A stretch of 24,000 nt of DNA from positions 1,475 through 25,474 of the forward strand of contig JANTGY010000016.1 of assembly GCA_024762695.1 (NCBI GenBank), written 5' to 3'. Origin of the DNA: Anaerolineae bacterium (lineage in GTDB: Bacteria > Chloroflexota > Anaerolineae > Promineifilales > Promineifilaceae). A program made the position numbers and the translations under genes. The stretch's first letter is position 1; every line of letters begins with the position of its first letter. This document shows, piece by piece, positions 455 through 23,242 of the stretch. The notes beneath the pieces were generated by a model. It was not told the DNA's origin. It was given only the letters and a program-made list of their open reading frames with translations, and did not search any database.

Positions 455-1369
455 ATGCTTGAAATTGCGATTATGGTTGAAGGGCAAAATGGTTTGAATT
501 GGCCGCGTTGGAAAAGGCTGGCAACGGCCGTTGAAGAACTAGGCTTCGTCGGTCTTTACCGCTCCGATCATTACACCAACGCCAACCCGCCGGATAAAGA
601 GTCGCTGGAATTATGGGTATCGTTGACCTGGTTAGCCAGCCACACCAAGCGCATTGAATTTGGACCGCTCGTCTCGCCCGTCTCCTTCCGTCAACCAACG
701 ATGACGGCGCGGATTGCCGGCGCAATAGACGATTTATCTGGCGGGCGGTTAACGTTGGGACTAGGCGCGGGCTGGCAAGAGCGCGAACACACGAATTACG
801 GTTGGGATTTGCTGGATGTGCCGCAGCGTTTTGCCCGGTTTGAAGAAGGGCTGGAAATCATCACACAACTGCTTCACAATGATGATCCGGTGGATTTTGC
901 CGGGGATTATTACCAAACCAATGAAGCAGTTCTGCTGCCTCGCCCACAGCGACCGGGCGGGCCGCCCATCCTCATCGGCGGCAACGGCCCCAAACGTACA
1001 CTGCCCCTGGCGGCGCGTTACGCTTCAGAATGGAATGCGGTTTATGTTTCAGCCGCTCGGTTCGCCGAGTTAAGCGGAATGTTGGATGAGATGTTGGTTG
1101 GAAACGGCCGTGCACCTTCCAACGTCCGCCGATCCCTCATGACTCGCGTCGAAATCGGCAATGACAACCAACTCCAAGCCAAATTCGCTCATTCCAGCCT
1201 GACTCTGGACGAACTCCGGCAACGTGGGCTGGTCCTAGGAACCGGCCCGCAAATCGTCGAGCAGTTGGAGCAGCTTGAAGACGCGGGCGTGCAGCGCGTC
1301 ATGCTGCAATGGCTCGATCTAGACGATATGGACGGACTAGAAAAACTAGCCAACGCCGTTTTGTCCTGA
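455..1369 (+). CDS. LLM-class (luciferase-like) flavin/F420-dependent oxidoreductase
   Basis: 304 aa. N-terminal IMVEGQNGLNW...LGFVGLYRSDHY and GGRLTLGLGAGWQEREH match the luciferase-like monooxygenase TIM-barrel family by recall. AAGGAGG lies 9 nt upstream of the ATG. Confidence 0.8.
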   Translation: MLEIAIMVEGQNGLNWPRWKRLATAVEELGFVGLYRSDHYTNANPPDKESLELWVSLTWLASHTKRIEFGPLVSPVSFRQPTMTARIAGAIDDLSGGRLTLGLGAGWQEREHTNYGWDLLDVPQRFARFEEGLEIITQLLHNDDPVDFAGDYYQTNEAVLLPRPQRPGGPPILIGGNGPKRTLPLAARYASEWNAVYVSAARFAELSGMLDEMLVGNGRAPSNVRRSLMTRVEIGNDNQLQAKFAHSSLTLDELRQRGLVLGTGPQIVEQLEQLEDAGVQRVMLQWLDLDDMDGLEKLANAVLS

Positions 1370-1395
1370 CACCCTCAGCCACGCCAAAAACAAAA

Positions 1396-1436
1396 AACCT
1401 CTTGTCCGGATTGACCAGACAAGGGGTTTTTTCTGT
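1396..1436 (+). terminator. intrinsic terminator after the LLM oxidoreductase
   Basis: 11-bp stem AACCTCTTGTC / GACAAGGGGTT (one G-U pair), 11-nt loop, then a T6 run. Confidence 0.7.
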
Positions 1437-1480
1437 TTTGGGCAATAGAGTCGTTTCTGACTTAACAAATACTTGCCGTT

Positions 1481-1569
1481 GTCATACCCCCACCTTCGTG
1501 AGGGCAAGCTCTGCGAAGGCAGGTATCCCTCTTTTTTTAGGAATGGATTCCCGCCTGCGCGGGAATGAC
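1481..1569. repeat. REP-like palindromic element (GTCAT...ATGAC family), copy A
   Basis: gtcatacccccaccttcgtgagggcaagctctgcgaaggcaggtatcc resembles the copy at 13678. It ends in the hairpin ATTCCCGC-ctgc-GCGGGAAT (1547..1566). Lies between convergent genes. Confidence 0.6.
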
Positions 1570-1602
1570 ATGATCAGTTTTTACAAAAGAACAAACTATT
1601 GT

Positions 1603-2067
1603 TTATTCCGTGTCCTCAACCGAATCCGCGTCCTCTGGGGACTTCTCGGCAGCCCCAAATTGTCCGGCCAGCTTGCCCAGCTCTTCGCTAAGCCATTGCA
1701 AGCCCTGCACCAGCCCCTCGCGGGTTTTACGGCCCAAATCGCCCGTTTCAATTTTGGTCTTGATTTCAGCCGCTTCTTCCTTTACTTTGGCCGCCGCCTG
1801 ACTTTCTTTAGCCTCGCGGATAGCTTTATCTACTTCGCTCACAAAAGATTTCACACCTTCGCGTATTTCACCTTCCACACGATGCCGTTCTTCGCTGTTC
1901 CAGGCCGTTTGCACCGTGTCGGCAAATTGGCGACCCAAATCTTTCAGTTCTCCGGAAATATCGCGCTTTGTCGTATCCGCTTTGGCCGCTTCTTCTTCCT
2001 CTACCGGAATTTCAACTTTCAACCGTTCTTTAATTTCTTCCACACTGGGAATTTGTTCATCGCTCAT
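1603..2067 (-). CDS. hypothetical acidic coiled-coil protein
   Basis: ORF 1603..2085. AAGGAG sits 9 nt upstream of the internal ATG at 2067 (MSDEQIPS), and no SD precedes the ATG at 2085. Glu/Lys-rich with no recognisable catalytic motif. Confidence 0.5.
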   Translation of the reverse strand: MSDEQIPSVEEIKERLKVEIPVEEEEAAKADTTKRDISGELKDLGRQFADTVQTAWNSEERHRVEGEIREGVKSFVSEVDKAIREAKESQAAAKVKEEAAEIKTKIETGDLGRKTREGLVQGLQWLSEELGKLAGQFGAAEKSPEDADSVEDTE

Positions 2068-2142
2068 GATGTCATACTCCTTCATTCAGAAACCTATCAT
2101 ATGACATGCTTTACGTAGTTGACTAAAGTTGGTTGCAATAAC

Positions 2143-3129
2143 TTAGTTCTCAATCTTTTTGAGCGACCAATTATCGACAAAGAAGCCATTGGTTGACAGC
2201 GCATACCGTCCACGAAAACCGACGCCAATTTGCACAGTTTGAGCCTGAGCAACGGTAAAGGTATGGGTAAACGTGTTGCGTTGTCCAAATACAGGCAGGA
2301 ACCAGCCCGTTTCGGCCCCGGTTACGATAAAGCGGACTTCTCCAGAAAGCGGATCGCTAGCCCATATTTTTTGGTGGTTTTCATAACCCATCACCATGTC
2401 TGGGAACAGATTGATCTCAAATTGGTAGGTTCCTGGCTCCAGGTGCATATCGGTCAGCAGCCTCATGCTGATGGCGCCATTGCCTTTAAACATTTTGACG
2501 GTATGCGTGCCATCCCAAATGAACAGGGCGTGTTCGTCGGGCGGCAGTTGGGAGGATGGCAATACGCGCGTTTCTGGTCGCACATAAACATCCCAAGGAT
2601 TGTCGCCAAAGCCGGTTGGTCCTTCGTCCCATTGGAAATACCAGCCATTGGGTAATTGCAATTCGGGTATGCCGTCTTTGTTGTAATGCCCTTCCTCAAA
2701 AGATGCATTGGTCAGAATATTCTGGCCTAATATGGGGTCAGAAGGGATGGTTGGCGGCGGTGGCGGCGCTGTAGGTTGGGGCGGGGAAGTAGGCGGCACG
2801 GCCGTTGCCGTAGGCGGCACGGCCGTTGGCTCTGGCGTGTTGGTGGGAATGGGGATGGGCGTGTCTGTTGGCGGGGCCGGCGTAGCGGTGGGCACGGCCG
2901 TACTGGTGGGCGGCGGCGGAACCGGCGTGTTCGTCGGCGGAATCGGCTCCGGCGTCCAGGTAGGCGGAACTTGGGCGACAGCATCGTCCGTTTCTACATC
3001 CGACAATACCGTTGGCGCAACCGCTGCCCGCGTCGGCAAGATAGAATCGGTTTGGCAAGCGGCCAATACCAGCGCCATCATCATCAATGCCGCGAACCGG
3101 CCGCTAAATAACTGTTTCTTTAGTAACAA
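2143..3129 (-). CDS. lipoprotein with Pro/Thr-rich linker and C-terminal carbohydrate-binding-module-like beta-sandwich
   Basis: TTG start with GGAGG 9 nt upstream. Signal peptide plus lipobox (MMMALVLAAC), a PT linker of about 90 aa, then about 200 aa beginning NASFEEG..., which looks like CBM4/9 or a galactose-binding-like fold by eye. Confidence 0.65.
   Translation of the reverse strand: MLLKKQLFSGRFAALMMMALVLAACQTDSILPTRAAVAPTVLSDVETDDAVAQVPPTWTPEPIPPTNTPVPPPPTSTAVPTATPAPPTDTPIPIPTNTPEPTAVPPTATAVPPTSPPQPTAPPPPPTIPSDPILGQNILTNASFEEGHYNKDGIPELQLPNGWYFQWDEGPTGFGDNPWDVYVRPETRVLPSSQLPPDEHALFIWDGTHTVKMFKGNGAISMRLLTDMHLEPGTYQFEINLFPDMVMGYENHQKIWASDPLSGEVRFIVTGAETGWFLPVFGQRNTFTHTFTVAQAQTVQIGVGFRGRYALSTNGFFVDNWSLKKIEN
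2789..2830. repeat. 21-nt in-frame tandem duplication inside the PT linker
   Basis: gtaggcggcacggccgttgcc followed by gtaggcggcacggccgttggc (20/21 identical). Each unit carries one ACGGCCGT. Confidence 0.8.
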
Positions 3130-3267: not shown

Positions 3268-3297
3268 TTGACGGCCGTTCCCCCTTCCGTCTATAAT
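3268..3297 (+). promoter_or_regulatory. sigma70-like promoter (TTGACG, 18-nt spacer, TATAAT)
   Basis: -35 TTGACG at 3268..3273 and perfect -10 TATAAT at 3292..3297. It points into a gene-free region. An ACGGCCGT copy at 3271 overlaps the -35. Confidence 0.4.
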
Positions 3298-4051: not shown

Positions 4052-4064
4052 TAGGTGAAAACGG
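4052..4064. repeat. 13-nt match to the MITE terminus (solo end?)
   Basis: TAGGTGAAAACGG is identical to the first 13 nt of MITE copy 1 (6543..). Here it runs directly into an ACGGCCGT copy (4061). Confidence 0.4.
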
Positions 4065-4081
4065 CCGTCAAGTCACACAAG

Positions 4082-5194
4082 CTAACGGCCGTATCGCCTT
4101 ATCACCGCCATCACCTCATCCACCGGCAGGGCATGGCGCGTATTGCCATCGCGTCCCACAACCGTGCGGGCCATGAACAAGCTGTTGTAAATCGCCTCTT
4201 CAACCGATTCGATGACTGCCAATGAGAATACGCTCATGATGGGTTGCAGGTGGAGATAAGGCCGTTCCACAACCAATTGCTCTGGCCTATCAGGAAAATG
4301 AACGGCCGTACTGAAAGCAATGACAAAATCGCCGCTGCCGCCATGAACAGCGCTGCCCGTCCGCGCCAGTCCCAAAACCGCCCGCTTACACAACCGGCCT
4401 AACTGGCGACTGTTCAACGGCGCGTCCGTCGCCAATACAATCATAATCGAGCCGTCTTCAGTGCGATTAGCGCCTTCTGGCGGCCGCAAATGCTTCCCGA
4501 CCGGAACGCCGGCAATTGTAAGCTCTTCGGGACGGCCGTAATTGCTCTGCACCAACGCCCCCACCGTAAAGCCCCCCTTCTCCGCTGGCAAAACCCGACT
4601 GGCCGTGCCGATGCCCCCCTTCCAGCCAAAACAGCTTGTTCCCGTCCCCGCGCCCACAGCGCCCTCGGCTACCGGGCCAGTCGCTGCCTTGGCAACGGCT
4701 GCGCGTACTTCTTTCTCGCCAATCGGTCGCGCTTGAATGTCGCTCAAGTAACCATCGCTCGTCTCGCCCACGACCACATTCACACTGGCGTAACCTTGCC
4801 GCCCCGTTTCCGCAAAGCCGACGCCAATATGCGGGTTTTGCTCAATCGCCAACGCTATCAGCGCATCGGCTACGCGGGGGACGTTCAGTGTGCCCGTCAG
4901 AGCAATAGGCGATTCCAACCGGCCCAGTTCCCTGGCCTGCTCAAAGCCAAACACTTTGCCAAAACCATTGATGGTATGAACGGCCGTCGCCACCTTTTTA
5001 TCGTACAAATTACCCAGATGCGGCAAAATCACTGTCACCCCAGTGCGAAACGGGCCGCTCCCTGGCCGCCAGACCCCCTCGCCGGCAAACAGCGTCTCAT
5101 GCCCGACAGCCACCCCAACCACATCAGTGATGCCGTTCAACGGCCCCCTCTCCAAACGATTAATCATGATGTTCAACTCAGCAAAACGCGGCAT
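4082..5194 (-). CDS. P1/S58-family peptidase (DmpA-type L-aminopeptidase/D-esterase)
   Basis: 370 aa. NGITDVVGVAVGH near the N-terminus and the self-processing region GTGTSCFGWKGGIGTASR are typical of DmpA/BapA-type Ntn hydrolases. AAGGAG 7 nt upstream of the ATG. Confidence 0.85.
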   Translation of the reverse strand: MPRFAELNIMINRLERGPLNGITDVVGVAVGHETLFAGEGVWRPGSGPFRTGVTVILPHLGNLYDKKVATAVHTINGFGKVFGFEQARELGRLESPIALTGTLNVPRVADALIALAIEQNPHIGVGFAETGRQGYASVNVVVGETSDGYLSDIQARPIGEKEVRAAVAKAATGPVAEGAVGAGTGTSCFGWKGGIGTASRVLPAEKGGFTVGALVQSNYGRPEELTIAGVPVGKHLRPPEGANRTEDGSIMIVLATDAPLNSRQLGRLCKRAVLGLARTGSAVHGGSGDFVIAFSTAVHFPDRPEQLVVERPYLHLQPIMSVFSLAVIESVEEAIYNSLFMARTVVGRDGNTRHALPVDEVMAVIRRYGR

Positions 5195-5367: not shown

Positions 5368-6522
5368 ATGTTGAATTTAAAAACCAAAGTCATTCCCTGC
5401 CCTAACTGCAACCAACTCGTTTCGCGTGAAGAACGGACTTGTCCCTACTGTCAATCCGATCTGGCGATTGCGGCCGTCATTGCCGAAAGAGCGATGTCGG
5501 CGTCGCCCTTATTTAGCAGCCAACCTGCCGCGCCGGAAATGTTGGTCACGCGCGTGGGCGATCTTCTGGTGCAAGAGGGCTTTTTGGCTGAGGCTGATTT
5601 ACACCGCGCCCTGGACGTTCAGAAAGAACGTTCCCAACAAGGAAACCATATCCGTATCGGTCAACTTTTGATAGAGATGGGATTGATTCGTCCTGACGCG
5701 CTGGATCAGGTCGTCACACAGCATATTTTGCAGTTGCAAGAAGCGTTAACGCAAAGTAACCAGCGCTTAGAAAATCAAGTGCAGCAGCGTACAATCCAAT
5801 TACAAAATGCGCTAGCCAAGCTGTCCGAACTAAACCAACTCAAGTTAAATTTCATCTCCAATATATCGCATGAGCTGCGAATGCCCATGCAATTCTTAAT
5901 TGGCTATTTAGATTTGATGAATGGCGGAGCCTTAGGCAAAATGACTGAGCAGCAGGCCAAAGCGGTAGACTCCATGATGGGAGCCAGCAGCCAGTTACAG
6001 CGGCTGATTGAAGATTTGTTACAATTTTCGTCGGCAGCCGATGGCAATTTGCCGCTGGATATGGCCCCGATTACGCTGGATATGCCAGTCAACACGGCCG
6101 TTTCCCATACCCAGCCCAAAGCATTTGCCAGAGAAATCACCCTCAACAACGACCTCTACCCGCGCATCCCCAAAGTCATCGCCGACAATCAAAAAATCAC
6201 TTGGGTTGTCGAACAATTCTTAGACAACGCCATCAAATTCACCCCTGCTGGCGGCAAAGTACGCATCGAAACCATCCCTGTCCGGGGAGACGTTACCGTC
6301 AAAGTAACCGATACCGGCATCGGTATTCCACAAAACCGGATTGAAGAAATTTTTGAGCCTTTCCATCAGCTTGACGGCTCCACCACCCGCAGTTATGGCG
6401 GCACGGGCCTCGGCCTGGCTCTGGCCCGCAACATCGTAGAAGCGCACGGCTCGACCATTCATGTAGATTCCCAGGTGGGTGAAGGAACCTGCTTCTCCTT
6501 TGCATTGCCCGCCCTCAACTAA
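5368..6522 (+). CDS. soluble sensor histidine kinase (zinc ribbon + T2SSE_N/MshEN-like motifs + HisKA + HATPase_c)
   Basis: CPNC..17..CPYC zinc ribbon, tandem RVGDLLVQEGFL.../RIGQLLIEMGLI... motifs, a coiled coil, H-box ISHELRMP, and the ATPase motifs DTGIGIP and GGTGLGLALARNIVEAHG. No TM segments. Confidence 0.85.
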   Translation: MLNLKTKVIPCPNCNQLVSREERTCPYCQSDLAIAAVIAERAMSASPLFSSQPAAPEMLVTRVGDLLVQEGFLAEADLHRALDVQKERSQQGNHIRIGQLLIEMGLIRPDALDQVVTQHILQLQEALTQSNQRLENQVQQRTIQLQNALAKLSELNQLKLNFISNISHELRMPMQFLIGYLDLMNGGALGKMTEQQAKAVDSMMGASSQLQRLIEDLLQFSSAADGNLPLDMAPITLDMPVNTAVSHTQPKAFAREITLNNDLYPRIPKVIADNQKITWVVEQFLDNAIKFTPAGGKVRIETIPVRGDVTVKVTDTGIGIPQNRIEEIFEPFHQLDGSTTRSYGGTGLGLALARNIVEAHGSTIHVDSQVGEGTCFSFALPALN

Positions 6523-6898: not shown

Positions 6899-9649
6899 AT
6901 GCCACGACGAGCTTGGGCATATATTTGGTTTATTTTTATCACAGGCATGATTGTCGTTCTGTTGGCCGGACTGGATTTCAGCGTCACCGGTAGCTTATCA
7001 GAACAATGGCCCATCCTCGTGGCTTTGACAATTTTCGCTACGCTGGCCCAATTGTTTAAAGCTGAAGCGCCCGATCATCAAATTTATCATACAACCCTGG
7101 TCTTTCAATTTGCCGGGGTCGTTTTGCTTCATCCTGCTCTCTTTGCATTCTTAATCATCATTCCACATTTAGCAGAATGGGTGCGGGAACGATTATTTGT
7201 TGAGAACAGCCGCCATCTACGCGATTGGTATTTGCAACCCTTTAATATCTTCCTCCATATTATCGTTGGCGCATTAACGCATATTGTCTATTTCTCGCTT
7301 TCGAATGTATTAGTTGAATTTGGCAATGTGGCGGCGCTGATAACGGCCGTTACCGCCGCCGCCATCTACGTTATCCTCAACCACCTCCTCGTCGGGTTAG
7401 CCATCGTCTTCGCCAGAGGCGTATCCTTGCGCGAATCAGGCATCATGGCCGCCAGCAGCCTCGTCGCCGACCTGGTATCACTGCTCATGGGCTACGCAGT
7501 ATCCGTATTTTGGCAAATCAACTTGTGGCTGGTTTGGATCGCTCTAGCGCCGTTAATCGTCATCTACCGCGCTCTATCCATCCCCAATTTAGAACGCCAG
7601 GCCCAAATGGATGCCAAAACGGCAGTGTGGAACGCCGGCTATTTCAAAACAGCGCTGCAAACTGAACTTAACCGCGCCCAAAGTTTGCGCCGTCCCTTAA
7701 CGCTGGTCATGGCCGATTTAGATTATCTACGCCGCGTCAACAACACCTACGGCCACTTGGCCGGCGACGCCGTCTTACAAGGCGTGGCCCGCATTCTGCG
7801 CGAATCGGCCCATGACTTCGACATCGTTTCTCGTTTTGGCGGCGAAGAATTCGCCATTCTTATGCCGGAAACAACAGCAGAGCAAGCGCTGGAACGCATC
7901 GAGATCATGCGCAATGCCATCGCCGCAGCCGAATTCACTTCAACCGTCCACGATGAGATCATCAAAGTCACCATGAGTTTTGGCATTGCCGCCCGCAAAG
8001 GTGACAGCCAATCAGCCGCCGACATCGTCCACTGCGCCGATATAGCCGTCTACCAGGCCAAGGAAAACGGCCGTAACCGTAGCTACATCTACGACTACAA
8101 ACGAGACCGCAACCTAAAACTCCCCAACGCAGCCAGCGAACTACCCGAAACGCCAACCAACACCGCGAAGCCCCTCCTCCCCACAATTTCCATCCCCAAC
8201 CATGCAGTTCCAGCCCCCCCAGGCAAAACAGCGGCTCCCGAAAAACAGGCGTCCGAAATCACCTCTCCACAAATGTCGCCGCAGGTCAAGACTTACATAG
8301 TCAGCGTCGCCATCTTCGCCGCCACCTTAATAATGCTGTCCTATCCATTCGATTTAGCCCCGGATTGGACAGGATTACTAGCCTTTGTCGGTCTGGTACT
8401 GTTAGTCGAAGCCCTGTCCGTCGAAATTCATGTCCGCGACTCAACAGTCTCCACCTCAGTCGCGCCCTACATGGCCGCCATTCTACTCTTTGGCCCCATC
8501 GCCGCCGTCATCATTGCGCCGATCATCGCCCTGGTCAATCTCATTAAACGGCGCGGCCCCTTCTCACGCGCCCTTTTCAATACCGGCAACCACGCCATTA
8601 CCGGCTTGTTGTGCGCTGAGTTCATCCTATTCAGCGGCCGGGCCATCACCACCTGGCCGATCATGGTTCAAATCATGGTTAGCCTGGCCACAATCAGCTT
8701 TGCTTACTTCGTCACCACTGGACTGCTGGCTGTCGCCATCAGCCTGGACAGCGACCAACCGCTTTCGCGCGTATGGACAGAACGTTTCCGATGGCTGGCG
8801 CCTTACTACCTGGCCCTCGGCTTCGTCGTCTACGCCCTTATTTTTAGCTACGTCTCCGCTGGCATCTTAGGCATTTTAGTCGTCCTGGTTCCCCTGCTCA
8901 TGCTGCGATTCAGCCAAAAACAATACGTTGACCACACAGAAGAGCTTGTTCAACAATTACGCGCCAACAACCAGGAACTACGCATCCAGTCCGAAGAAAT
9001 CACCCTACTCAACGAAGAGTTATTGCTCACCCTGGCCCGCTCTATTGACCTGCGCGACCCTTACGTAATGGAACATGCTAAAAACGTGGCCCGCTACGCC
9101 GTTCTAACCGCGCAAGAATTGGGGCTATCCCCAGAACGCATTGAGCACATCCGTAAAGCAGGACTTTTACACGACATTGGCAAACTGGGCATTCCTGAAG
9201 TCGTCCTATTCAAGCCGTCTGATTTAACAGATGATGAATACGAACTCATTAAAGAGCATGTCAACATCGGAGCCGAACTTATTTACGGCTGCCACTCCCT
9301 CCACAATCTCATTCCATTTGTGCAACACCATCATGAACGCTTCGATGGCAAAGGCTACCCCAGTCAAATATCTGGCGAAGAGATTCCTCTGGAAGCGCGC
9401 ATCCTAAATCTGGCCGATGCGGTGGAAGCAATGGCCTCCGATCGCCCTTATAAATTAGCCGAATCGCCAGAAGAAATTTTAGAAGAAGTCACCCGCTGCG
9501 CCGGCGGCCAATTCGATCCCAATGTCGTAGAAGCTTTCCGGCGCGTGGTAGACAAGTATGGCTACAGCGTCATCGTCAATTCGGCCCGCAACGTGCAGGC
9601 CGGCGCATACGCCTCGGTCAAAACGCTTAGCCAGGAACCCCATCGCTAA
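6899..9649 (+). CDS. bifunctional c-di-GMP protein: membrane module 1 + GGDEF + Pro-rich linker + membrane module 2 + HD-GYP
   Basis: GGAGG 8 nt upstream of the ATG at 6899 (the ORF track begins at a TTG at 6818). About 8 TM helices; GGDEF domain about 7610..8095 with GGEEF at 7838..7852; second block of about 7 TM helices (about 8280..8910); HD-GYP domain with LHDIGK and HHERFDGKGYP (about 9030..9560). Confidence 0.85.
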   Translation: MPRRAWAYIWFIFITGMIVVLLAGLDFSVTGSLSEQWPILVALTIFATLAQLFKAEAPDHQIYHTTLVFQFAGVVLLHPALFAFLIIIPHLAEWVRERLFVENSRHLRDWYLQPFNIFLHIIVGALTHIVYFSLSNVLVEFGNVAALITAVTAAAIYVILNHLLVGLAIVFARGVSLRESGIMAASSLVADLVSLLMGYAVSVFWQINLWLVWIALAPLIVIYRALSIPNLERQAQMDAKTAVWNAGYFKTALQTELNRAQSLRRPLTLVMADLDYLRRVNNTYGHLAGDAVLQGVARILRESAHDFDIVSRFGGEEFAILMPETTAEQALERIEIMRNAIAAAEFTSTVHDEIIKVTMSFGIAARKGDSQSAADIVHCADIAVYQAKENGRNRSYIYDYKRDRNLKLPNAASELPETPTNTAKPLLPTISIPNHAVPAPPGKTAAPEKQASEITSPQMSPQVKTYIVSVAIFAATLIMLSYPFDLAPDWTGLLAFVGLVLLVEALSVEIHVRDSTVSTSVAPYMAAILLFGPIAAVIIAPIIALVNLIKRRGPFSRALFNTGNHAITGLLCAEFILFSGRAITTWPIMVQIMVSLATISFAYFVTTGLLAVAISLDSDQPLSRVWTERFRWLAPYYLALGFVVYALIFSYVSAGILGILVVLVPLLMLRFSQKQYVDHTEELVQQLRANNQELRIQSEEITLLNEELLLTLARSIDLRDPYVMEHAKNVARYAVLTAQELGLSPERIEHIRKAGLLHDIGKLGIPEVVLFKPSDLTDDEYELIKEHVNIGAELIYGCHSLHNLIPFVQHHHERFDGKGYPSQISGEEIPLEARILNLADAVEAMASDRPYKLAESPEEILEEVTRCAGGQFDPNVVEAFRRVVDKYGYSVIVNSARNVQAGAYASVKTLSQEPHR

Positions 9650-10507: not shown

Positions 10508-11692
10508 TCAAGCCGGTTTTTGCACAAGCGCGGCCCGGAAGCCGCGCCGTTTTTTGTCTTTTTGCAGCCTCAAGCGCCCTAAATTGGGCAGTAATCGCTG
10601 CATCAGACTGCTTTTGGCGCTGATCAGAACCTGGCCGTTGGGCGCGAGTAAGGCGTCCAGTTGACTTGGCAGGAGGTCGGGCCAGGGAACGCCGGGATCG
10701 GCGTCGGGGAAAGCGACGATGAAATCATATTGGCCGTCTAAATCCAAAATGGAAGGCTGATGTGCCGTTGAAATTTTAGCCTGTTCAAGGCCATTTTCGA
10801 CTAGATTTTGGGCGGAAATGGTCAGGCTGAGTAAATCGCGGCTGCCCAATGTGATGGCGGACACGGCCGTTCCCCACCTCTTCCCCATATAAACCGGCAC
10901 ATGCCCCTGCCCTGGATTCCACACAAGGACACGGCCGTTCACCATCACATCTTTCAACAAGTCATAGGCAACGGCCGTCTGGAAGCCCAATTGGTCAAAC
11001 TCTGGCAGATTGTAGACGGTCTGCAATTGGTAGGCGGCGCGGGGCGCTTTGAAGCGGGATTGGGCGCGGAAGTAAGGCGGCAATGGGTTCGTAGACACGG
11101 ACGTCTCGCCACCCCGAAAATGGAATACCGTGTATCCCTTGCCCGCTTCCTTCAACAGCATCTCGCTGCCCTGTTTTTGTAATTGCGCTTCGATATGGTC
11201 GGCTAACGGCCGTACAATCACCACCGCCGCTAGCCCTGTTTCCGTCAAATGGCGCGGCATTCGGGCCAGCATATCGGCCAGCGCCGACTCGCCCGCCTTG
11301 CCCGGCAAATTAGAGACGATTAAATCAAAACGGCCGTCGCCCAAACCCTGCAAAGCCAATCCGCCGGGGACAGCGACATCGGCCAGCTTGTTCAAACGCG
11401 CATTGCGCTGCGCGAAGGCTAACGCCAGCGCATCCCGGTCTTGCGCCGTCAGCGCGATGGCCGGATTAACCTTTTGCAAGCTCAATCCAATCACGCCCAC
11501 GCCGCAGCCCACATCCAAAACGGCGCCAATTTCGGCCAGCGGAACCTCTTTGGCGATGGTTTTGAGCAGCAGCCGCGTCCCCTGATCCACGTCAAAACTG
11601 CTAAACAACGACTGCGACAAATCAAACTGCAATTCCTGACGGTAAAAGCGGAATTTGACCCGCTTGTTGACGAATAAGTCCAGATTACTCAT
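10508..11692 (-). CDS. class I SAM-dependent methyltransferase (RsmC/RlmG-like small-domain type)
   Basis: FSSFDVDQGTRLLL, the SAM motif VLDVGCGVGVIGL, and DLIVSNLPGK in place of NPPFH. Its start codon overlaps the ABC gene stop (ATGA at 11689..11692). Confidence 0.65.
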   Translation of the reverse strand: MSNLDLFVNKRVKFRFYRQELQFDLSQSLFSSFDVDQGTRLLLKTIAKEVPLAEIGAVLDVGCGVGVIGLSLQKVNPAIALTAQDRDALALAFAQRNARLNKLADVAVPGGLALQGLGDGRFDLIVSNLPGKAGESALADMLARMPRHLTETGLAAVVIVRPLADHIEAQLQKQGSEMLLKEAGKGYTVFHFRGGETSVSTNPLPPYFRAQSRFKAPRAAYQLQTVYNLPEFDQLGFQTAVAYDLLKDVMVNGRVLVWNPGQGHVPVYMGKRWGTAVSAITLGSRDLLSLTISAQNLVENGLEQAKISTAHQPSILDLDGQYDFIVAFPDADPGVPWPDLLPSQLDALLAPNGQVLISAKSSLMQRLLPNLGRLRLQKDKKRRGFRAALVQKPA

Positions 11693-16107: not shown

Positions 16108-18525
16108 ATGACCAAATCAAAATCATTGTTATTTACTTTCATCACGGCCGTTCTCGGCATGGGGATGGCGGCCTATCTGTTTTTCTGGCTGGACGGCGCG
16201 ACGGTAATCCAGGCCGCGCCAACCGCCACCTGGTATGTCAATGTCGCCACTGGCGATGATGGCAATGGCTGCTTGTCGGCCGGCGACGCCTGCCAAACCA
16301 TCGCCGCCACCGTGGACAAAGCGGCCGACGACGACACCATCCAAATCGCCGCCGGAACGTATGTCGAACATGACATTGAAATTTATAAGCGGTTAACCTT
16401 GATTGGCGCGGGCGCGGGCAGCACAATTCTGGATGGAAACCACGCCGGCCGTGTCTTGAGAACGGGAGCCGCCTCTACGATTGTTGGCGTTACCATTCAA
16501 AATGGAGCGATTATCACGCCATCGGCCCTCATTTTCGACACGAGCGGCGGGGCCATCTTGAACAGCAATTCCTTGACTCTGCGCGACAGTGTGGTGATCA
16601 ACAACGGAGCAATAGGCAGTGGTGGGGCAATTTTCACGCTAAACGGAGCGCTAGTCATCGAAAACAGCGAGATTATCAGCAATACGGCCGTCGGCAACGG
16701 CGGCGCTATTTTCGGCTATTTGACGGCAGGGACGATTTCGGTCACTGATTCGTTGTTGGCTGATAATACGGCCGTCGGCAGTTCAGGCGGCGCAGTTGAC
16801 ACCACCATTGACCTGTATATAAACAACGTCACCGTCCGCGACAACAGCGCCACTTCCTTTGGCGGCGGCTTGAATATCAACGCCGCCGCCACCTTGGAAA
16901 ACAGCCTCATCACCGGCAACGAATCTGCCTCTGGCGCGGCCATCTTCTCTCAATCTAACGCGGCAATCACCCTGACCAACATGACCGTTAGCGAAAACAC
17001 AGCCAGTAATAATCAAGGCGGCATCTACGTAAGCGGTCCCACCGTCTCGCTGGTTGTGCAAAACAGTACCATCGCCAACAACCACCGCACCAACACCGGC
17101 GGAACGGGCTATAACGGCTTAATGATCGGCAACGACGCGTCGGTTGAGATTGTCAACACGATTTTTGCCAATAACGATGATCGAAACTGCGGCGGCACGA
17201 CCGGCAACTGGACATCGTTGGGTTACAACCTATCTACCGATTTCCAATGCGCCCTGACTCAAACGGGCGATCAGCAAGGAATAGACCCGCTGCTGGGACT
17301 ATTGGCCGACAACGGCGGCGCAGCGCTGACCCATGCTCTCCAGGCCAACAGTCCGGCGATTGACGCAGGAACCAATTCTAGCTGCCCAGCCACCGACCAA
17401 CGCGGCGTGACACGGCCGTATGACGGCGATAACAACGGCACAGCCACTTGCGACATCGGCGCTTTCGAGGCCCAACATCGCCTGACAATCGAGGATGTCG
17501 CCATTGTTGAGGGTGACAGCGGCACAGTCAGCGCCGTTTTCACCGTCACCCTTTCCCCCGACCACAGCCAGACGGTAACGGTGGATTATGCCACCAGCGA
17601 CGACACGGCAGCGGCGGGCAGCGATTATACGGCCGTTTCTAACGCCCTCACCTTCAATCCCGGCGAAACAACCAAATTCGTCACCGTTCCCGTGATCGGC
17701 GATTTTAGCGATGAGCCGGATGAAACGTTTTTTGTGACGTTAAGCAATGCAAATAATGCGGCCGTTTTGGACGATACGGCCGTCGGCACAATTATTGACG
17801 ACGACGGCTTGCCGGTTCTGACCATTGCCGACCAAACCCTTTTGGAAGGAGACAGCGGCACAACTAGCATGGTCTTTGACGTCGCCCTCTCCATCGCCAG
17901 TGTAGATGTGGTGACAGTGAATTATGCGACGGTTAACGGTTCGGCGACGGCCGGGGAAGATTATACGGCCGCTGCTGGCGCCCTCACCTTCCAACCCAAC
18001 GAAATCAGCAAACAAATCACCGTACCAATCAATGGCGACGATGTGGACGAGGGCGACAGCGAAGCCTTCACCCTCCAACTCTCCAGCCCTAGCAACGCCA
18101 ACATCAGCGACGGCGTCGGCGACGGAACCATCACCGACGACGACACCGCCCGCTTGTCGCACGGCCTCGGCCCGCAGGTATTTGAAGGCGACAGCGGCAC
18201 GACCCCGGCCACCTTCACCGTGACCCTCTCCACGCCGGCCGATTTCATCATTACCGTTGATTATGCGGTAAACCCCGGCTGCTGCGACGGCCACGCCTTT
18301 GAAGGAACAGACTTCAACCCCGCGTCGGGAACGCTCACCTTCCAACCGGGCGAAACGGTGCAAACCTACGCCGTCCAAATTATCGGCGATACCGAGGCCG
18401 AAGAAGATGAGTTCATCAGTTCCCAAATTAGCAATGCCACTGTCCCCATCTCGGTCAATGGCAGTAATGGCTATATACTGAACGACGATGATTACAAAGT
18501 TTTCTTGCCCATGATTACGAGATAG
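16108..18525 (+). CDS. secreted/anchored right-handed beta-helix protein with three C-terminal Calx-beta domains
   Basis: AGGAG upstream. N-terminal hydrophobic anchor. Many PbH1-type repeats (N.A..GGAI). DQRGVTRPYDGDNNGTATCDIGAFE closes the beta-helix. Then three repeats of about 110 aa (nt about 17480..18492) with the EGDSGT...V.Y.T..G.A.AG.DY....G.L.F.PGE......V.I.GD..E..E.F pattern. Confidence 0.8.
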   Translation: MTKSKSLLFTFITAVLGMGMAAYLFFWLDGATVIQAAPTATWYVNVATGDDGNGCLSAGDACQTIAATVDKAADDDTIQIAAGTYVEHDIEIYKRLTLIGAGAGSTILDGNHAGRVLRTGAASTIVGVTIQNGAIITPSALIFDTSGGAILNSNSLTLRDSVVINNGAIGSGGAIFTLNGALVIENSEIISNTAVGNGGAIFGYLTAGTISVTDSLLADNTAVGSSGGAVDTTIDLYINNVTVRDNSATSFGGGLNINAAATLENSLITGNESASGAAIFSQSNAAITLTNMTVSENTASNNQGGIYVSGPTVSLVVQNSTIANNHRTNTGGTGYNGLMIGNDASVEIVNTIFANNDDRNCGGTTGNWTSLGYNLSTDFQCALTQTGDQQGIDPLLGLLADNGGAALTHALQANSPAIDAGTNSSCPATDQRGVTRPYDGDNNGTATCDIGAFEAQHRLTIEDVAIVEGDSGTVSAVFTVTLSPDHSQTVTVDYATSDDTAAAGSDYTAVSNALTFNPGETTKFVTVPVIGDFSDEPDETFFVTLSNANNAAVLDDTAVGTIIDDDGLPVLTIADQTLLEGDSGTTSMVFDVALSIASVDVVTVNYATVNGSATAGEDYTAAAGALTFQPNEISKQITVPINGDDVDEGDSEAFTLQLSSPSNANISDGVGDGTITDDDTARLSHGLGPQVFEGDSGTTPATFTVTLSTPADFIITVDYAVNPGCCDGHAFEGTDFNPASGTLTFQPGETVQTYAVQIIGDTEAEEDEFISSQISNATVPISVNGSNGYILNDDDYKVFLPMITR

Positions 18526-18689: not shown

Positions 18690-19457
18690 ATGCAACGCAG
18701 ACTGATTACTTTGGCAATGATGTATCTAGGCGCGGCAACGGCCGTCATCCTGCTAATTGATGGTCTTTCGATTACGTATGGGGCCAAGGATGCGGTTACA
18801 ACCGTTACCACTGTTCTGTACGACGGCCGTTTGGGGACCCTTCCTGACGACCAAAGTTTTTCCTATGGCGAACTACCTTTCCCCCCGTTTGCCACGCAAA
18901 CGATCAGCGACAGCGGCGTCATTTTGGATTCAACGACCAGCGCCAGCATCCAAGCCGGTTATGGCGTCACTGCCAGCAACAGCATCATACTTGATCGCCA
19001 CACTGGCTATAAAGTTACTTTTGAGGCGCACGTTCTGACGCAAACGGCCGTTAACAATGACCGCGCCGGATTCAGCCTTATCGTTCTCAGCGAGGATTTA
19101 GAAGGTATTGAACTAAGCTTCTGGAACGATCAGATTTTCTCGCAAGATGATGGGGGCAATTTGTTTGGGCGGGGCGAAACGGCCAATTTTGACACGATGG
19201 TCGCACCAACTCTATATGATTTGCAAATTTTTAGCGGCACATACACCTTATCCAGCAGCGGGACAGAAATTATGAACGGCCGTCTCCGCAATTACAGCGC
19301 TTTTGAACCGCCTCCCGGATATCCCGACCCCTATGAAACGCCCAGTTTCATCTTTTTAGGCGACAATACAACCTCCGCCCAGGCCAGCGTCAAAATTGAT
19401 TACGTCGCCGTCCGGCCCAACGATCTCATCTTTCTGCCATTTGCAATTCGGCCTTAA
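18690..19457 (+). CDS. hypothetical secreted/anchored protein (possible lectin-like beta-sandwich)
   Basis: 255 aa with an N-terminal hydrophobic segment LITLAMMYLGAATAVILLI and no catalytic motif recognised. The C-terminal tail LIFLPFAIRP resembles the tail of the upstream gene. The stop codon TAA overlaps the first bases of MITE copy 3. Confidence 0.55.
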   Translation: MQRRLITLAMMYLGAATAVILLIDGLSITYGAKDAVTTVTTVLYDGRLGTLPDDQSFSYGELPFPPFATQTISDSGVILDSTTSASIQAGYGVTASNSIILDRHTGYKVTFEAHVLTQTAVNNDRAGFSLIVLSEDLEGIELSFWNDQIFSQDDGGNLFGRGETANFDTMVAPTLYDLQIFSGTYTLSSSGTEIMNGRLRNYSAFEPPPGYPDPYETPSFIFLGDNTTSAQASVKIDYVAVRPNDLIFLPFAIRP

Positions 19458-19570: not shown

Positions 19571-19642
19571 ACTCACGCTCCGGTTCTTATACGCAAGACA
19601 GTGGGAAACGGCCGTTCCCCGCCCCATAACAAAAAACAACTG

Positions 19643-20068
19643 TCAAAGACGGCCGTTCCCATTATCCATCTTGCGTTCCAGAGGAGCCAACTTATCCAAC
19701 TCCCCTTTTTTAAGCTCACATTCCCAGATACGGATAACTTGCCAATTCTTTTGCGTTAACTGCTCCGTAACGTGTTTATCCCGGGCCATGTTACGCTGTC
19801 GTTTCTTTTGCCAATAGTCGGCGTTGGCAGACGGCCGTGTATTGCGACAATCATGCCCGTGCCAAAAACAACCATCCACAAAAACGACAATACGCAGCTT
19901 AGGGAACACAAAATCCGGCTTGCCCAGCAGCTTATAATTGCGCCGCCAGCCCTTCCAGCCTCGTTCCTTGAAAATCTGAATCAGCTTCAGTTCAGTGGAT
20001 TTGTTGCCCTTTGATTTAACCGCCCGCATAATTTCGGAACGTTTTTTCTTGGAAAATGTGTCAGTCAT
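19643..20068 (-). CDS. vsr: very-short-patch-repair endonuclease
   Basis: 141 aa. KKKRSEIMRAVKSKGNKSTE...GKPDFVFPKLRIVVFVDGCFWHGHDC...YWQKKRQRNMARD...WQVIRIWECE matches the Vsr family throughout. The ATG overlaps the dcm stop (ATGA at 20065..20068). Confidence 0.9.
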   Translation of the reverse strand: MTDTFSKKKRSEIMRAVKSKGNKSTELKLIQIFKERGWKGWRRNYKLLGKPDFVFPKLRIVVFVDGCFWHGHDCRNTRPSANADYWQKKRQRNMARDKHVTEQLTQKNWQVIRIWECELKKGELDKLAPLERKMDNGNGRL

Positions 20069-20980: not shown

Positions 20981-22306
20981 TTATTGGAGGCTGGTAAACG
21001 GCCGTGCAAAATCCCGGAACATCGCCAGCACATAGTCAATCATTTCATGTGTAAGACCAGGATATACGCCAATCCAAAAAGAGCCATTCATAATGACGTC
21101 GGTATTGGCCAATGAGCCAACGACACGATGCGGGATGTTTTGGTAGGCCGGTTGGCGGATGAGATTGCCGCCGAACAACTGCCGGGTGGCGATTTTGCGG
21201 TCGTCGAGGTAACGAATCAATTCGTTGCGGCCAAAGGGAGCTTCAGGCCGCACAGTTAACAGAAAACCAAACCAACTGGGGTCGCTCTTGGGTGTCGGTT
21301 CCGGCAAAACGAAAAATTCCTCCAGCAGTTTGAGACCGTCGTACAATCGCTGCCAATTGCGCTTGCGGGCGGCAATGAAGCCGTCCAATTTTTTTAGCTG
21401 GGCCACGCCGACGGCCGCTTGCATGTCGGTCATTTTCAGGTTATAGCCGATGTGGGAATAAATATATTTGTGGTCGTAGCCGTAGGGTAAATCGCCCAAC
21501 TGCCACTCGAACCGTTTGCCGCAAGTGTTGTCTTTGCCCGGCGGACACCAACAGTCACGCCCCCAATCACGGAAGGATTCGACTAACTTTTTGAGACGGG
21601 GTCGGTCGGTAAGGACAACGCCCCCTTCGCCCATGGTGATGTGGTGAGCGGGATAAAAGCTGACGGTAGAGAGATGGCCGAATGTGCCGGTAAAACGGCC
21701 GTTGTACCGGCTGCCCAGCGCGTCGCAGTTATCTTCAATCAACCATAAATCGTGTTCGTTGGCAACGGCCGTAACCGTATCCAGGTCAAACGGATTCCCC
21801 AGCGTATGGGCAATCATGATCGCTTTCGTCCGCGGCGTGATCGCTTCATCCAAACGAGACACGTCAATATTGTGCGTTTGCAGGTCAACATCCAGAAACA
21901 CAGGCATCATCCCATTTTGAATGATGGGGTTGACGGTGGTCGGAAAGCCGGCGGCGACGGTAACAACCTCATCGCCCGGCTGCAACTGCCGTTTGCCCAG
22001 ACTGGGAGATGTAAGCGCCGACAAGGCCAACAGATTGGCCGATGAACCGGAGTTACATAAGCTGGCGTGGCGCACGCCCAAATAACGAGTTAACTCTTGC
22101 TCGAACAGTTCCGCGTAACGACCAGTTGTCAACCAAAATTCCAGCGAAGAATCTACCAGGTTGACCATTTCGGCGGCGTCAAACACTTTACCGGAAACGG
22201 GCACGGCCGTTTTCCCCGGCACAAACGGCTCATCGCCAAACGCTTCCTCATGATAAGCTTGCACCAGGTCTAAAATTTGTCGTTTAATCGCTTCACTTTT
22301 ACTCAT
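20981..22306 (-). CDS. rfbH: RfbH/DdhC-type PMP-dependent CDP-4-keto-6-deoxy-D-glucose-3-dehydrase (DegT/DnrJ/EryC1 fold)
   Basis: 441 aa, collinear by recall with Salmonella RfbH. His-for-Lys active site [14 protein letters not shown], Cys-rich Fe-S segment [21 protein letters not shown], and SDPSWFGF. Confidence 0.8.
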
Positions 22307-22326
22307 GCTTCGTTCTGCCGCTTAGT

Positions 22327-22385
22327 TGATTTCCGTGCTGGAATTTTATTACGCAGAGGTTCACGGAGAGAAAACAGAGAAAAGG
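22327..22385. repeat. left arm of the repeat cluster flanking MITE copy 4
   Basis: TGATTTCCGTGC (22327..22338) recurs at 22612..22623. ATTACGCAGAG (22348..22358) is inverted at 22593..22603 (CTCTGTGTAAT). Confidence 0.5.
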
Positions 22386-22397
22386 CGGTTTTTATGC

Positions 22398-22513
22398 TAG
22401 GTAAACCACAAAAAGTATTTTGATAAAAAATGCGCTAATTCGTTGTGGTTTACTCAGGCAAAACGGGAGAACCATTGGTTTCCTCATTCAAATGACTTTC
22501 CCGTTTTCACCTA
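22398..22513 (-). mobile_element. MITE copy 4 (full length), TA-flanked
   Basis: TA|GGTAAACCACAAAAAG...CCCGTTTTCACC|TA. Lies in the 5' region of the rfbH-dcm-vsr operon. Confidence 0.75.
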
Positions 22514-22554
22514 GTTTTAGAGAAAAAGTATCATTTTAAACAAGCATCACTCTC

Positions 22555-22623
22555 TCTTCTTCTCTGTGCAACTCCGTGCCTTCTCCGCGTGTCTCTGTGT
22601 AATGTTCTTAATGATTTCCGTGC
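22555..22623. repeat. right arm of the repeat cluster flanking MITE copy 4
   Basis: ttcttctctgtgcaactccgtgccttctccgcgtgtctctgtgtaat is an extended inverted version of the left arm, followed by the 12-nt direct repeat TGATTTCCGTGC. Confidence 0.5.
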
Positions 22624-22702
22624 CCATTATAAACGCCATCGCTCGTCGCAGCGCGTCGTTTACCCTACAAATTGTATATCGAAAAGGGGCAAATGGGGAT
22701 GG

Positions 22703-23242
22703 TTAGCTATTTTTGAGGAATTCGGCGGCGCGGAGGATGCCGATGATGCTTTTGGCATCGCGGATACGGCCGTCTCGCGCCATCGCCGTCAGATCAGATA
22801 AAGTAAACGGCCGTACCTCAATCTCTTCATCTGCATCCTGGGGCAAAGGGTCGGCATGCAAGCCCGTCGCCAGATAAATCTGCATCAACTCATTCGATAG
22901 GCCCGGCGTCGGCCAAATTTCGCCCAGCAGTGTCAACGACTCGGCCCGAAAGCCAGTCTCCTCGCGCAGTTCCCGCTGGGCGCATGCCAACCAATCCTCA
23001 TCCCAGCCGCGCGTTCCCGCCGGCAGCTCCAAAATCGTCTCGTCCAGCGCGCGCCGGTATTGGCGCAGCGCCAGCAGTTCCGGCCCACGCTCTGTCTGGC
23101 GCAGCGGAACCAAAACCACCGCCCCAGGATGTTCTACATAGGCGCGTTCATAGGGAGTGTTGTCGGGGAGAACGGCCGTTTCCGCCACCAATCGCCACGA
23201 ACCAGCCTTCTCCCAGACAAGACGGGGTTTTCTATTATGCAA
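22703..23242 (-). CDS. NUDIX hydrolase (ADP-ribose pyrophosphatase-like)
   Basis: Nudix box GTRGWDEDWLACAQRELREETGF (G-x5-E-x7-REUxEExGU). TTG start with a weak AGGA upstream, so the start is uncertain. Confidence 0.75.
   Translation of the reverse strand: MHNRKPRLVWEKAGSWRLVAETAVLPDNTPYERAYVEHPGAVVLVPLRQTERGPELLALRQYRRALDETILELPAGTRGWDEDWLACAQRELREETGFRAESLTLLGEIWPTPGLSNELMQIYLATGLHADPLPQDADEEIEVRPFTLSDLTAMARDGRIRDAKSIIGILRAAEFLKNS

Follow-up and report, generated by a model that had tools for sequence, protein, structure and literature searches.

A highly iterated palindrome of the HIP type in Ardenticatenaceae-like Anaerolineae (Chloroflexota)

The window analyzed here is a stretch of 24,000 nucleotides (nt) from the draft genome of an Anaerolineae bacterium in the phylum Chloroflexota (contig JANTGY010000016.1, positions 1,475 to 25,474). 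Dispersed through its genes and spacers is a single 8-bp palindrome, ACGGCCGT, which an exact search located 48 times (2.0 copies per kb). The original prediction, made from the sequence alone, had arrived at the same count, and 46 of its 48 coordinates were exact; the other two needed small corrections (8077 to 8067 and 21694 to 21695). It had also placed copies inside nearly every coding sequence (CDS): 46 copies are indeed genic, on both strands and in all three frames, but only 14 of the 20 genes contain at least one. The remaining two copies lie in spacers (4061 and 19608), where the prediction had likewise reported the word. A tabulation of frame usage, which it had proposed, gives codon phases 0, 1, and 2 in the ratio 22:17:7, encoding Thr-Ala-Val (TAV), [NDY]GR, and xRPx, respectively. 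Each line below is one exact copy of ACGGCCGT, with its host gene or open reading frame (ORF), strand, codon phase, and encoded peptide; L082 and L083 are related loci found through a methylase gene of the window.

524..531, luciferase-like monooxygenase gene (+), phase 0, TAV
1104..1111, luciferase-like monooxygenase gene (+), phase 1, NGR
2798..2805, unknown 328-aa ORF (-), phase 0, TAV; unit 1 of a 21-nt tandem duplication
2819..2826, unknown 328-aa ORF (-), phase 0, TAV; unit 2 of the 21-nt tandem duplication
2894..2901, unknown 328-aa ORF (-), phase 0, TAV
3271..3278, unknown 101-aa ORF (-), phase 1, NGR
4061..4068, intergenic, between OsmC and peptidase S58; 24 nt from the next copy
4085..4092, peptidase S58 gene (-), 3' end, phase 1, YGR
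4302..4309, peptidase S58 gene (-), phase 0, TAV
4532..4539, peptidase S58 gene (-), phase 1, YGR
4980..4987, peptidase S58 gene (-), phase 0, TAV
6094..6101, histidine kinase gene (+), phase 0, TAV
7343..7350, GGDEF/HD-GYP gene (+), phase 0, TAV
8067..8074, GGDEF/HD-GYP gene (+), phase 1, NGR
10863..10870, MTS methyltransferase gene (-), phase 0, TAV
10931..10938, MTS methyltransferase gene (-), phase 1, NGR
10971..10978, MTS methyltransferase gene (-), phase 0, TAV
11206..11213, MTS methyltransferase gene (-), phase 2, VRPL
11330..11337, MTS methyltransferase gene (-), phase 1, DGR
11866..11873, ABC transporter gene (-), phase 1, DGR
12241..12248, ABC transporter gene (-), phase 1, DGR
12259..12266, ABC transporter gene (-), phase 1, DGR
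12430..12437, ABC transporter gene (-), phase 1, NGR
13043..13050, ABC transporter gene (-), phase 0, TAV
14508..14515, metalloenzyme-DeoC fusion gene (-), phase 2, GRPL
15414..15421, metalloenzyme-DeoC fusion gene (-), phase 2, KRPF
15490..15497, metalloenzyme-DeoC fusion gene (-), phase 1, YGR
15500..15507, metalloenzyme-DeoC fusion gene (-), phase 0, TAV; starts 10 nt past the start of the copy at 15490 (2-nt gap)
16144..16151, Calx-beta protein gene (+), phase 0, TAV
16684..16691, Calx-beta protein gene (+), phase 0, TAV
16768..16775, Calx-beta protein gene (+), phase 0, TAV
17412..17419, Calx-beta protein gene (+), phase 2, TRPY
17629..17636, Calx-beta protein gene (+), phase 0, TAV
17776..17783, Calx-beta protein gene (+), phase 0, TAV
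18738..18745, choice-of-anchor-Y protein gene (+), phase 0, TAV
18823..18830, choice-of-anchor-Y protein gene (+), phase 1, DGR
19044..19051, choice-of-anchor-Y protein gene (+), phase 0, TAV
19276..19283, choice-of-anchor-Y protein gene (+), phase 1, NGR
19608..19615, intergenic, between convergent genes; within the extended near-palindrome GGGAAACGGCCGTTCCCC
19649..19656, vsr (-), C-terminal tail, phase 1, NGR
19831..19838, vsr (-), phase 2, TRPS; gained in situ, Vsr orthologues having T-K-P-A, T-T-P-A, and similar
20998..21005, DegT aminotransferase gene (-), phase 2, ARPF; kept in L082, ACGACCGT in L083
21695..21702, DegT aminotransferase gene (-), phase 1, NGR; kept in L082 and L083
21765..21772, DegT aminotransferase gene (-), phase 0, TAV; kept in L082 and L083
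22203..22210, DegT aminotransferase gene (-), phase 0, TAV; kept in L082 and L083
22766..22773, NUDIX gene (-), phase 1, DGR; kept in L082 and L083
22807..22814, NUDIX gene (-), phase 2, VRPF; lineage-specific gain (TCAACCGA in L082, TCAACCTA in L083) that needed Q>R and I>F
23172..23179, NUDIX gene (-), phase 0, TAV; kept in L082 and L083

By chance, ACGGCCGT is expected 0.46 times in the window from base composition and 0.52 times in dinucleotide-preserving shuffles (maximum, 2 in 100), an excess of about 100-fold; no other palindromic 8-mer exceeds 3 copies. Markov models of orders 1, 2, 3, and 4 predict 0.56, 1.2, 2.3, and 5.7 copies. An order 6 model predicts 42.6 against the 48 seen, but this null is uninformative because almost all ACGGCCG and CGGCCGT 7-mers already lie inside the palindrome. 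The hexamer CGGCCG occurs 66 times, and in 48 of these it is flanked by A and T; the unit is therefore the octamer and not its hexameric core. Across 14 loci, including those of relatives described below, the ratio of observed to expected copies ranges from 52 to 153.

The excess could in principle be a by-product of codon usage, amino acid motifs, base composition, or faulty assembly, and some codon preferences do lean that way: GCC and GGC lead among the codons of Ala and Gly, respectively, and Thr is often written as ACG. We therefore exchanged codons among identical amino acids throughout the window's CDSs, a procedure that leaves each protein and the pooled codon usage unchanged. In 1,000 such shuffles the word appeared 5.35 ± 2.1 times (maximum, 12), compared with 46 times in the real genes. 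The tripeptide TAV occurs 25 times in the window's proteins (3.6 expected), whereas each of its five permutations occurs only 2 to 5 times. In a first set of related genomes, TAV was seen 80 times against 12.5 expected, and 73 of the 80 were written as ACGGCCGT; in three further sets the fractions were 44/48, 93/95, and 42/43. Control genomes held 8 TAV tripeptides (8.5 expected), none of the 8 written with the palindrome. Across the lineage, then, 91 to 98% of TAV is encoded by ACGGCCGT and the tripeptide is 6- to 10-fold overabundant; for [NDHY]GR the encoded share is 77 to 86%, and for x-R-P-[FLSYCW] it is 55 to 77%. Given the rarity of the TAV permutations and the deficit in the shuffles, it is the DNA word that shapes the proteins and not the reverse, and it fills nearly every position that the protein sequence permits. 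The spread of copies over three phases, both strands, and the spacers also argues against a coding explanation, controls of similar G+C content show no enrichment, and the same word recurs in independent NCBI, ENA, JGI, and Logan assemblies. We accordingly assign a negligible probability to a compositional, coding, or assembly origin, as the original prediction had done for codon usage and protein motifs on the strength of frame and strand distribution; the codon shuffle and the low-order Markov nulls bear it out.

The bases around the copies are partly shared. A is preferred at positions -1 and -2 and T at +1 and +2, in all three phases and at noncoding copies, in keeping with the flank extensions reported originally. 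A G/C preference at ±3 to 4 partly tracks codon phase but is also visible at noncoding sites, and shared flank information is confined to about ±2 to 4 nt. The spacing of copies is irregular (coefficient of variation, 1.11) and therefore gives no sign of selection for even spacing. Two close arrangements can be recorded here: at 19600-19662, where convergent genes end, one copy in the spacer and one at a gene end are 41 nt apart, the first within the nearly perfect extended palindrome GGGAAACGGCCGTTCCCC, and a similar close pair is found at 4061/4085.

We next asked how far the word extends beyond the window, as the original prediction had proposed. All sequences compared are metagenome-derived loci of at most 24 kb each, and the sampling of the lineage covers groups other than Caldilineaceae and Anaerolineaceae. 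The first relatives were found through the window's 5-methylcytosine (m5C) methylase, an ascertainment bias that was removed by using loci anchored on ftsZ. Contigs with the closest methylase homologues (75 to 90% identity) all come from Chloroflexota/Anaerolineae assemblies, and all are rich in ACGGCCGT (16 copies in 10.9 kb, 17 in 14 kb, 35 in 21 kb, 11 in 11.6 kb, 22 in 11.8 kb, and 26 in 10.8 kb). An FtsZ query taken from one rich contig returned relatives named Anaerolineae, Ardenticatenaceae, "Ca. Promineifilaceae," and "Ca. Leptofilum," and three ftsZ loci hold 28 ("Ca. Leptofilum," 6.36-Mb contig), 34 (an Ardenticatenaceae metagenome-assembled genome [MAG]), and 30 (another contig of MAG Dive96_bin3.68) copies per 21 kb. 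Every related Anaerolineae contig recovered has a density of about 1 to 2.4 copies per kb. The source databases name the word-rich relatives Anaerolineae, Ardenticatenaceae, "Ca. Leptofilum," or Chloroflexota, and none is cyanobacterial.

A pattern scan of metagenomes for three clustered copies yielded more rich contigs, with 52 to 65% G+C; since these and the viral sequences described next were picked by clustered copies, their densities are biased upward. One of them, at 65% G+C and 3.1 copies per kb, encodes a glycyl-tRNA synthetase 89 to 90% identical to Ardenticatenaceae/Anaerolineales proteins. Word-rich members of the clade span 51 to 65% G+C, and the word is shared by at least 12 independent assemblies of related Chloroflexota. 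Applied to viral contigs, the scan turned up five rich ones. A contig with terminase, portal, head morphogenesis, and major capsid genes (L221, IMGVR_UViG_3300048592_001391) has 48 copies in 13.6 kb (∼3.5 per kb), and a plasmid- or phage-like contig with ParA, FtsK-like, and anti-repressor genes (L213, IMGVR_UViG_3300033417_000002) has 49 in 13.2 kb. Within L221, the portal gene has 5 copies and the major capsid gene 0. Outside the lineage, across more than 80 genomes, the word is essentially missing: 78 other genomes with 64 to 70% identical methylases hold 0 to 2 copies each, and two genomes with a 73 to 74% identical methylase plus Vsr (L089 and L091) hold 0 and 1. Abundance of ACGGCCGT is therefore a trait of an Ardenticatenaceae-like lineage of Anaerolineae, including a phage and a plasmid-like element, and not of the window alone. 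Extrapolated from loci of at most 24 kb, the copy number per genome would be, very roughly, 8,000 to 10,000.

In seven pooled genomes (104 kb), ACGGCCGT occurs 175 times against 2.0 expected. Variants that differ at an outer base are enriched 3- to 13-fold across sets (GCGGCCGT, 31 versus 4.7 in the seven-genome pool, with the C and T variants about 3-fold), whereas inner one-off variants stand at 0 to 3.5 times expectation, mostly at or below 1. The inner transversion variant favored by the commonest Thr and Ala codons, ACCGCCGT, is seen once against 4.1 expected, and C>T variants show no particular depletion. The same contrast between outer and inner positions holds in the independent metagenome and viral sets; among the viral contigs, the outer variants NCGGCCGT stand out, at 7 to 13 times expectation.

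Copies are also held in place. At about 80 to 84% nucleotide identity between orthologous regions, 12/14, 12/12, 6/7, and 5/7 copies are retained (71 to 100%), compared with 20 to 26% of other 8-mers; at 67% identity the figures are 3/8 to 3/9 (∼37%) and 7%. Conservation at orthologous positions is thus 4 to 5 times that of background 8-mers, and the comparison of orthologous positions that the original prediction had called for comes out strongly on its side. Two three-genome comparisons show clear gains and no unambiguous loss. Gained sites involve no change in length, and several cost amino acid replacements: Q>R and I>F in the window's NUDIX protein, K>N in the methylase of L083, and K/T>R in the window's Vsr. 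Nonconserved sites are mostly 3 to 5 bases away from the orthologous sequence, and some series look stepwise (ACTGGCGA, ACCGCCGT, ACGGCCGT). We do not claim that gains are concerted multibase replacements: differences of 3 to 5 bases are not clearly beyond expectation at 67 to 84% identity, and some series are stepwise.

Such conservation is what one would see if the copies were, individually or collectively, selected functional sites: binding sites for an abundant dimeric DNA-binding protein (chromosome organization), or a self-recognition or uptake tag favoring conspecific DNA, with abundance reflecting a fitness benefit and not a repair bias. The 4- to 5-fold better retention parallels the argument for selection on HIP1, the highly iterated palindrome (HIP) of cyanobacteria (PMC5861425), and the weak symmetric flanks (A at the two positions before the word, T at the two after it, and G/C beyond, noncoding copies included) resemble a footprint wider than a typical methylase site. 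A density of 1 to 2 per kb matches that of the DNA uptake sequences (DUS) and uptake signal sequences (USS) of other bacteria, recent work links HIP1 to transformation (bioRxiv 2024.09.10.611283; 10.64898/2026.06.24.733823), and the word is present in the lineage's phage and plasmid-like element too. However, the near saturation of TAV (91 to 98%) and the many gains paid for in amino acid replacements exceed what selection on density or spacing would need, the spacing is irregular, a palindrome cannot carry orientation information, and no competence or binding protein has been linked to ACGGCCGT. Conservation and symmetric flanks therefore fit functional sites as well as they fit a drive at the DNA level, while near saturation and irregular spacing fit them less well, and we regard selected sites as the main rival of a drive, a serious possibility that probably does not account for the abundance. 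The form GGAAACGGCCGTTTCC could serve as bait for probing it.

The absence of length changes at gained sites bears on another possibility, that a dispersed mobile element or satellite left the copies behind as remnants or has them as its cores; repetitive extragenic palindromic sequences and their doublets (REP/REPIN), miniature inverted-repeat transposable elements, and tandem repeats are of this kind. One 21-nt tandem duplication in the window does carry two copies, and some word-bearing metagenome contigs consist of a 12-nt satellite, (TGTACACGGCCG)n. Yet 46 of the 48 copies lie in frame in unrelated conserved genes and share only about ±2 flanking bases, and the satellite contigs are coenriched for GTGTACAC at 10 to 18 copies per kb, which marks a different phenomenon. 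For the window, we consider an origin from mobile or tandem repeats highly improbable. The contigs in question are L138, L161, L151, L111, and about 37 further short metagenome contigs (series Ga0056108, Ga0056133-135, Ga0209259, and Ga0209459), in which ACGGCCGT reaches 10 to 18 copies per kb alongside GTGTACAC; they are a degenerate form of the (TGTACACGGCCG)n satellite, unrelated to the dispersed palindrome. The duplication in the window (2789-2828, GTAGGCGGCACGGCCGTTGCC, perfect, 1.9 copies) lies in the unknown 328-aa ORF and supplies 2 of the 48 copies (2798 and 2819); scans for Rfam families, tRNAs, and tandem repeats gave nothing else of relevance in the window.

The window also contains an obvious suspect, a methylase gene paired with a gene for a Vsr endonuclease:

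19643-20068, minus strand, Vsr endonuclease gene (TIGR00632, above cutoff)
20065-20979, minus strand, m5C methyltransferase gene (PF00145), directly upstream of vsr with a 4-nt overlap

By analogy with Dcm and Vsr acting on CCWGG in Escherichia coli, this pair could make the excess by methylating a subsite of the word, with very short patch (VSP) repair restoring T:G mismatches to C. The position of a PF00145 methylase directly upstream of a bona fide Vsr inside a word-rich window is suggestive, and Elhai found a matching methylase for every alternate HIP (PMC4390886). The distribution and sequence of the enzyme tell against it. Its recognition region (motif WHENKSGNxSSYPYSCALRAGASYNYLLVNG) does not differ between genomes rich in the word and more than 70 that lack enrichment, and genomes with a 73 to 74% identical methylase and Vsr hold 0 to 1 copies. 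The closest characterized relative is a Neisseria gonorrhoeae enzyme (58% identical, same recognition motifs) that adjoins a HaeII-family nuclease (PF09554, E = 4e-190) and is therefore NgoAI, whose specificity is RGCGCY (PMC6789123). All four RGCGCY hexamers are depleted in 70 genomes with an intact system (pooled observed/expected ratio of 0.67, versus 1.18 for YGCGCR); a hypothesis-free inference of the target from avoidance of 4-, 5-, and 6-mers across 62 to 70 genomes was uninformative, the signal being clear only when RGCGCY was tested specifically. From the homology to NgoAI and the depletion in the 70 carriers, the target of the window's methylase is most probably RGCGCY, and ACGGCCGT contains no GCGC. 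Moreover, T:G repair acts at C positions only, yet transversion variants are depleted too. One 2.17-Mb N. gonorrhoeae record, NZ_CP119142.1 (L233), is listed among the plasmids of PLSDB but is evidently the chromosome, with its genes there largely unannotated.

The cassette itself is a decayed remnant of a foreign, widespread mobile restriction-modification system. In carriers it comprises the methylase, a nuclease of about 250 residues, and Vsr: among 92 sequences, the window included, 53 have methylase and nuclease, 19 have all three, and 9 have methylase and Vsr. The ∼250-residue conserved protein lies directly downstream of the methylase in L085 (11001-11753, plus strand), in L091 (7532-8281), and in 72 of the loci L003 to L081; presumably it is the restriction endonuclease that belongs with this methylase. 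Searches of Pfam, NCBIfam, PADLOC, PDB sequences, and PLSDB gave no match for it, and it shows no relationship to the HaeII nuclease found beside the Neisseria homologue. In the window's cassette this gene is gone. In L084 (11163-11906) the gene call ends at residue 176 of ∼250, although similarity continues to full length, and in L087 (6164-7252) the methylase ORF runs into nuclease fragments (…LDDVTL…DFDKSW…), a structure that indicates an internal deletion. The cassette has 41 to 44% G+C against 53 to 58% in its flanks in four word-rich genomes (low-G+C cassettes are those of L084, L002, L085, and L087, and also of L086, Logan SRR10294826), while those of the window, L082, and L083 stand at 50 to 53%. 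The word is scarce in the cassette as well: 10.9 kb contain 4 copies where 20 are expected (P = 1.7e-5). The window's own cassette has ameliorated to about 51% G+C, and two copies of ACGGCCGT have appeared there. This graded series of amelioration runs parallel to the gain of copies. The cassette thus serves as a clock by which resident DNA is seen to acquire the word over time, and it is not the cause; loci L082 to L087 carry it only through ascertainment by it. We therefore reject the methylase-Vsr pair as the source of the excess, a role we hold to be very unlikely. A motif scan of about 300 kb of word-rich DNA for other DNA methylases returned only this RGCGCY-type cassette, whose target does not match ACGGCCGT.

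Together, these observations describe a strong, directional force at the DNA level that acts on all eight positions of the word, on transitions and transversions alike, and on all replicons of these cells. Synonymous codon preference yields to it, as does some amino acid conservation, copies are held once formed, and the word slowly invades foreign DNA after acquisition. We infer, with confidence evenly poised between acceptance and doubt, that the likeliest cause of the accumulation of ACGGCCGT is a drive by sequence-specific conversion or repair, with a recognition protein that would be encoded elsewhere. Such a drive would begin wherever a replication error or a recombination heteroduplex makes the two strands unlike within or beside a near-cognate site. 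Repair or recombination would then preferentially retain the strand with the intact word, creating a ratchet in which one-off sequences become ACGGCCGT and are thereafter protected. A protein recognizing the CGGCCG core and the A/T on either side would choose the strand; it might be a methyltransferase that works with a nicking enzyme (Elhai's model for HIP1) or else a receptor for DNA uptake or recombination. This recognizer would be encoded outside the window and would not be its m5C methylase-Vsr pair. The proposal can be regarded as a generalized form of Elhai's model or, equivalently, as a drive through uptake and recombination.

Several points weigh against a conversion or repair drive. 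The roughly 300 kb of word-rich DNA scanned for methylases yielded no protein that recognizes the word, and the strand-bias step is purely our conjecture. Strong positional conservation is equally predicted by selection for function, the conclusion that Xu et al. drew from conservation of HIP1 (PMC5861425). Elhai's G-m5C rule cannot explain the A/T outer bases of ACGGCCGT, and gains that are often 3 to 5 bases from the orthologue are compatible with many small steps but do not demonstrate them. Finally, the loci are metagenome assemblies no longer than 24 kb, and any density, periodicity, or copy number for a whole genome is extrapolated from them.

The original prediction had likened the palindrome to HIP1 with a different sequence, and every test that we ran supports this likeness. 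Like HIP1 (GCGATCGC), ACGGCCGT is an 8-bp G+C-rich palindrome at about 0.5 to 2.5 copies per kb, by far the most overrepresented 8-mer, dispersed in genes (all phases) and spacers, present clade-wide, and partly extended by flanking bases. Both words are conserved at orthologous positions beyond background (for HIP1, PMC5861425) and have one-off variants concentrated at the first and last base (for HIP1, Elhai 2015, PMC4390886). Unlike HIP1, ACGGCCGT occurs in Chloroflexota, has the core CGGCCG instead of CGATCG and thus no GATC or Dam-type site, and has A/T and not G/C as outer bases, so that the G-m5C rule does not apply. HIPs are associated with a resident, usually orphan, methyltransferase for the core; for ACGGCCGT, the only methylase in about 300 kb of word-rich DNA is of the nonmatching RGCGCY type. 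HIPs are also spaced quasi-periodically along the chromosome; here the comparison covers loci of 24 kb or less, with a coefficient of variation of 1.11 in the window. We know of no figure for HIP1 comparable to the 91 to 98% encoding of TAV.

The alternate HIPs of cyanobacteria (GGGATCCC, TCGATCGA, GGCGCC, rCCGGy, and GCsGC; Elhai 2015) are similar in being lineage-restricted G+C-rich palindromes of similar density that replace the canonical word. They occur sporadically in single strains, whereas ACGGCCGT, which is absent from that list, spans a family-level clade with 51 to 65% G+C. DUS of Neisseria and USS of Pasteurellaceae resemble it in reaching about one copy per kb, lying in coding sequence in all phases, and being able to accumulate by molecular drive, and they coevolve with the proteome through favored tripeptides (PMC2817400); however, they are asymmetric 9- to 12-mers read by the uptake apparatus of naturally competent bacteria, and ACGGCCGT is a perfect palindrome. 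VSP repair by Dcm and Vsr in E. coli likewise is a sequence-specific repair bias that alters the abundance of oligonucleotides (CCWGG-related words), and the window has a Vsr gene. The effect of VSP repair is modest and limited to T:G at a methylated C, in contrast to an excess of about 100-fold at all eight positions, and the local cassette is foreign and of the RGCGCY type. REP/REPIN elements are also short, abundant, and palindromic, but they are 20 to 40 nt long, extragenic, inserted as whole units with conserved flanks, and mobilized by REP-associated tyrosine transposases (RAYT), whereas 96% of the copies of ACGGCCGT are intragenic substitutions without change in length. On these grounds we class ACGGCCGT with the HIPs, as one with a different core and in a second phylum, and it agrees with them in every sequence-level feature that could be compared. 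A literature search found nothing that pairs ACGGCCGT or any highly iterated palindrome with Chloroflexi or Ardenticatena, the palindrome papers on Ardenticatena dealing only with CRISPR.

Known since 1995, HIP1 still has a disputed function: a ratchet of methyl-directed repair, chromosome structure, and a DNA uptake signal have all been proposed. To our knowledge, evidence on HIPs has so far come from one phylum and essentially one word, and correlation and cause are therefore inseparable for HIP1. An independent HIP in another phylum supplies the missing comparison: features common to both systems, such as a class of methylase, a nicking enzyme, or a pilus or uptake protein, become prime candidates, and features of one system only, such as GATC/Dam or the G-m5C rule, are excluded as general requirements. 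ACGGCCGT also illustrates how far a process at the DNA level can rewrite proteins, with a tripeptide 6 to 10 times overabundant. More tentatively, and with less conviction than we attach to either a drive or selected sites, we suggest that the word may be the recognition tag of a lineage-specific system of DNA handling (strand discrimination in mismatch repair, or recognition of self DNA in uptake or recombination) that evolved independently of cyanobacterial HIP1. If so, hyperabundant palindromes would be a convergent, general bacterial solution, and comparing the two would identify the machinery. In practice, ACGGCCGT could act as a signature word that helps to bin Ardenticatenaceae-like contigs and their phages and to date DNA acquired horizontally.

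One gene of the window deserves separate mention. The minus-strand sequence at 13792-15750 is a single 652-aa ORF that combines a metalloenzyme superfamily (phosphopentomutase-like) domain with a DeoC/LacD aldolase domain, an apparent fusion of two steps of pentose/nucleoside catabolism.

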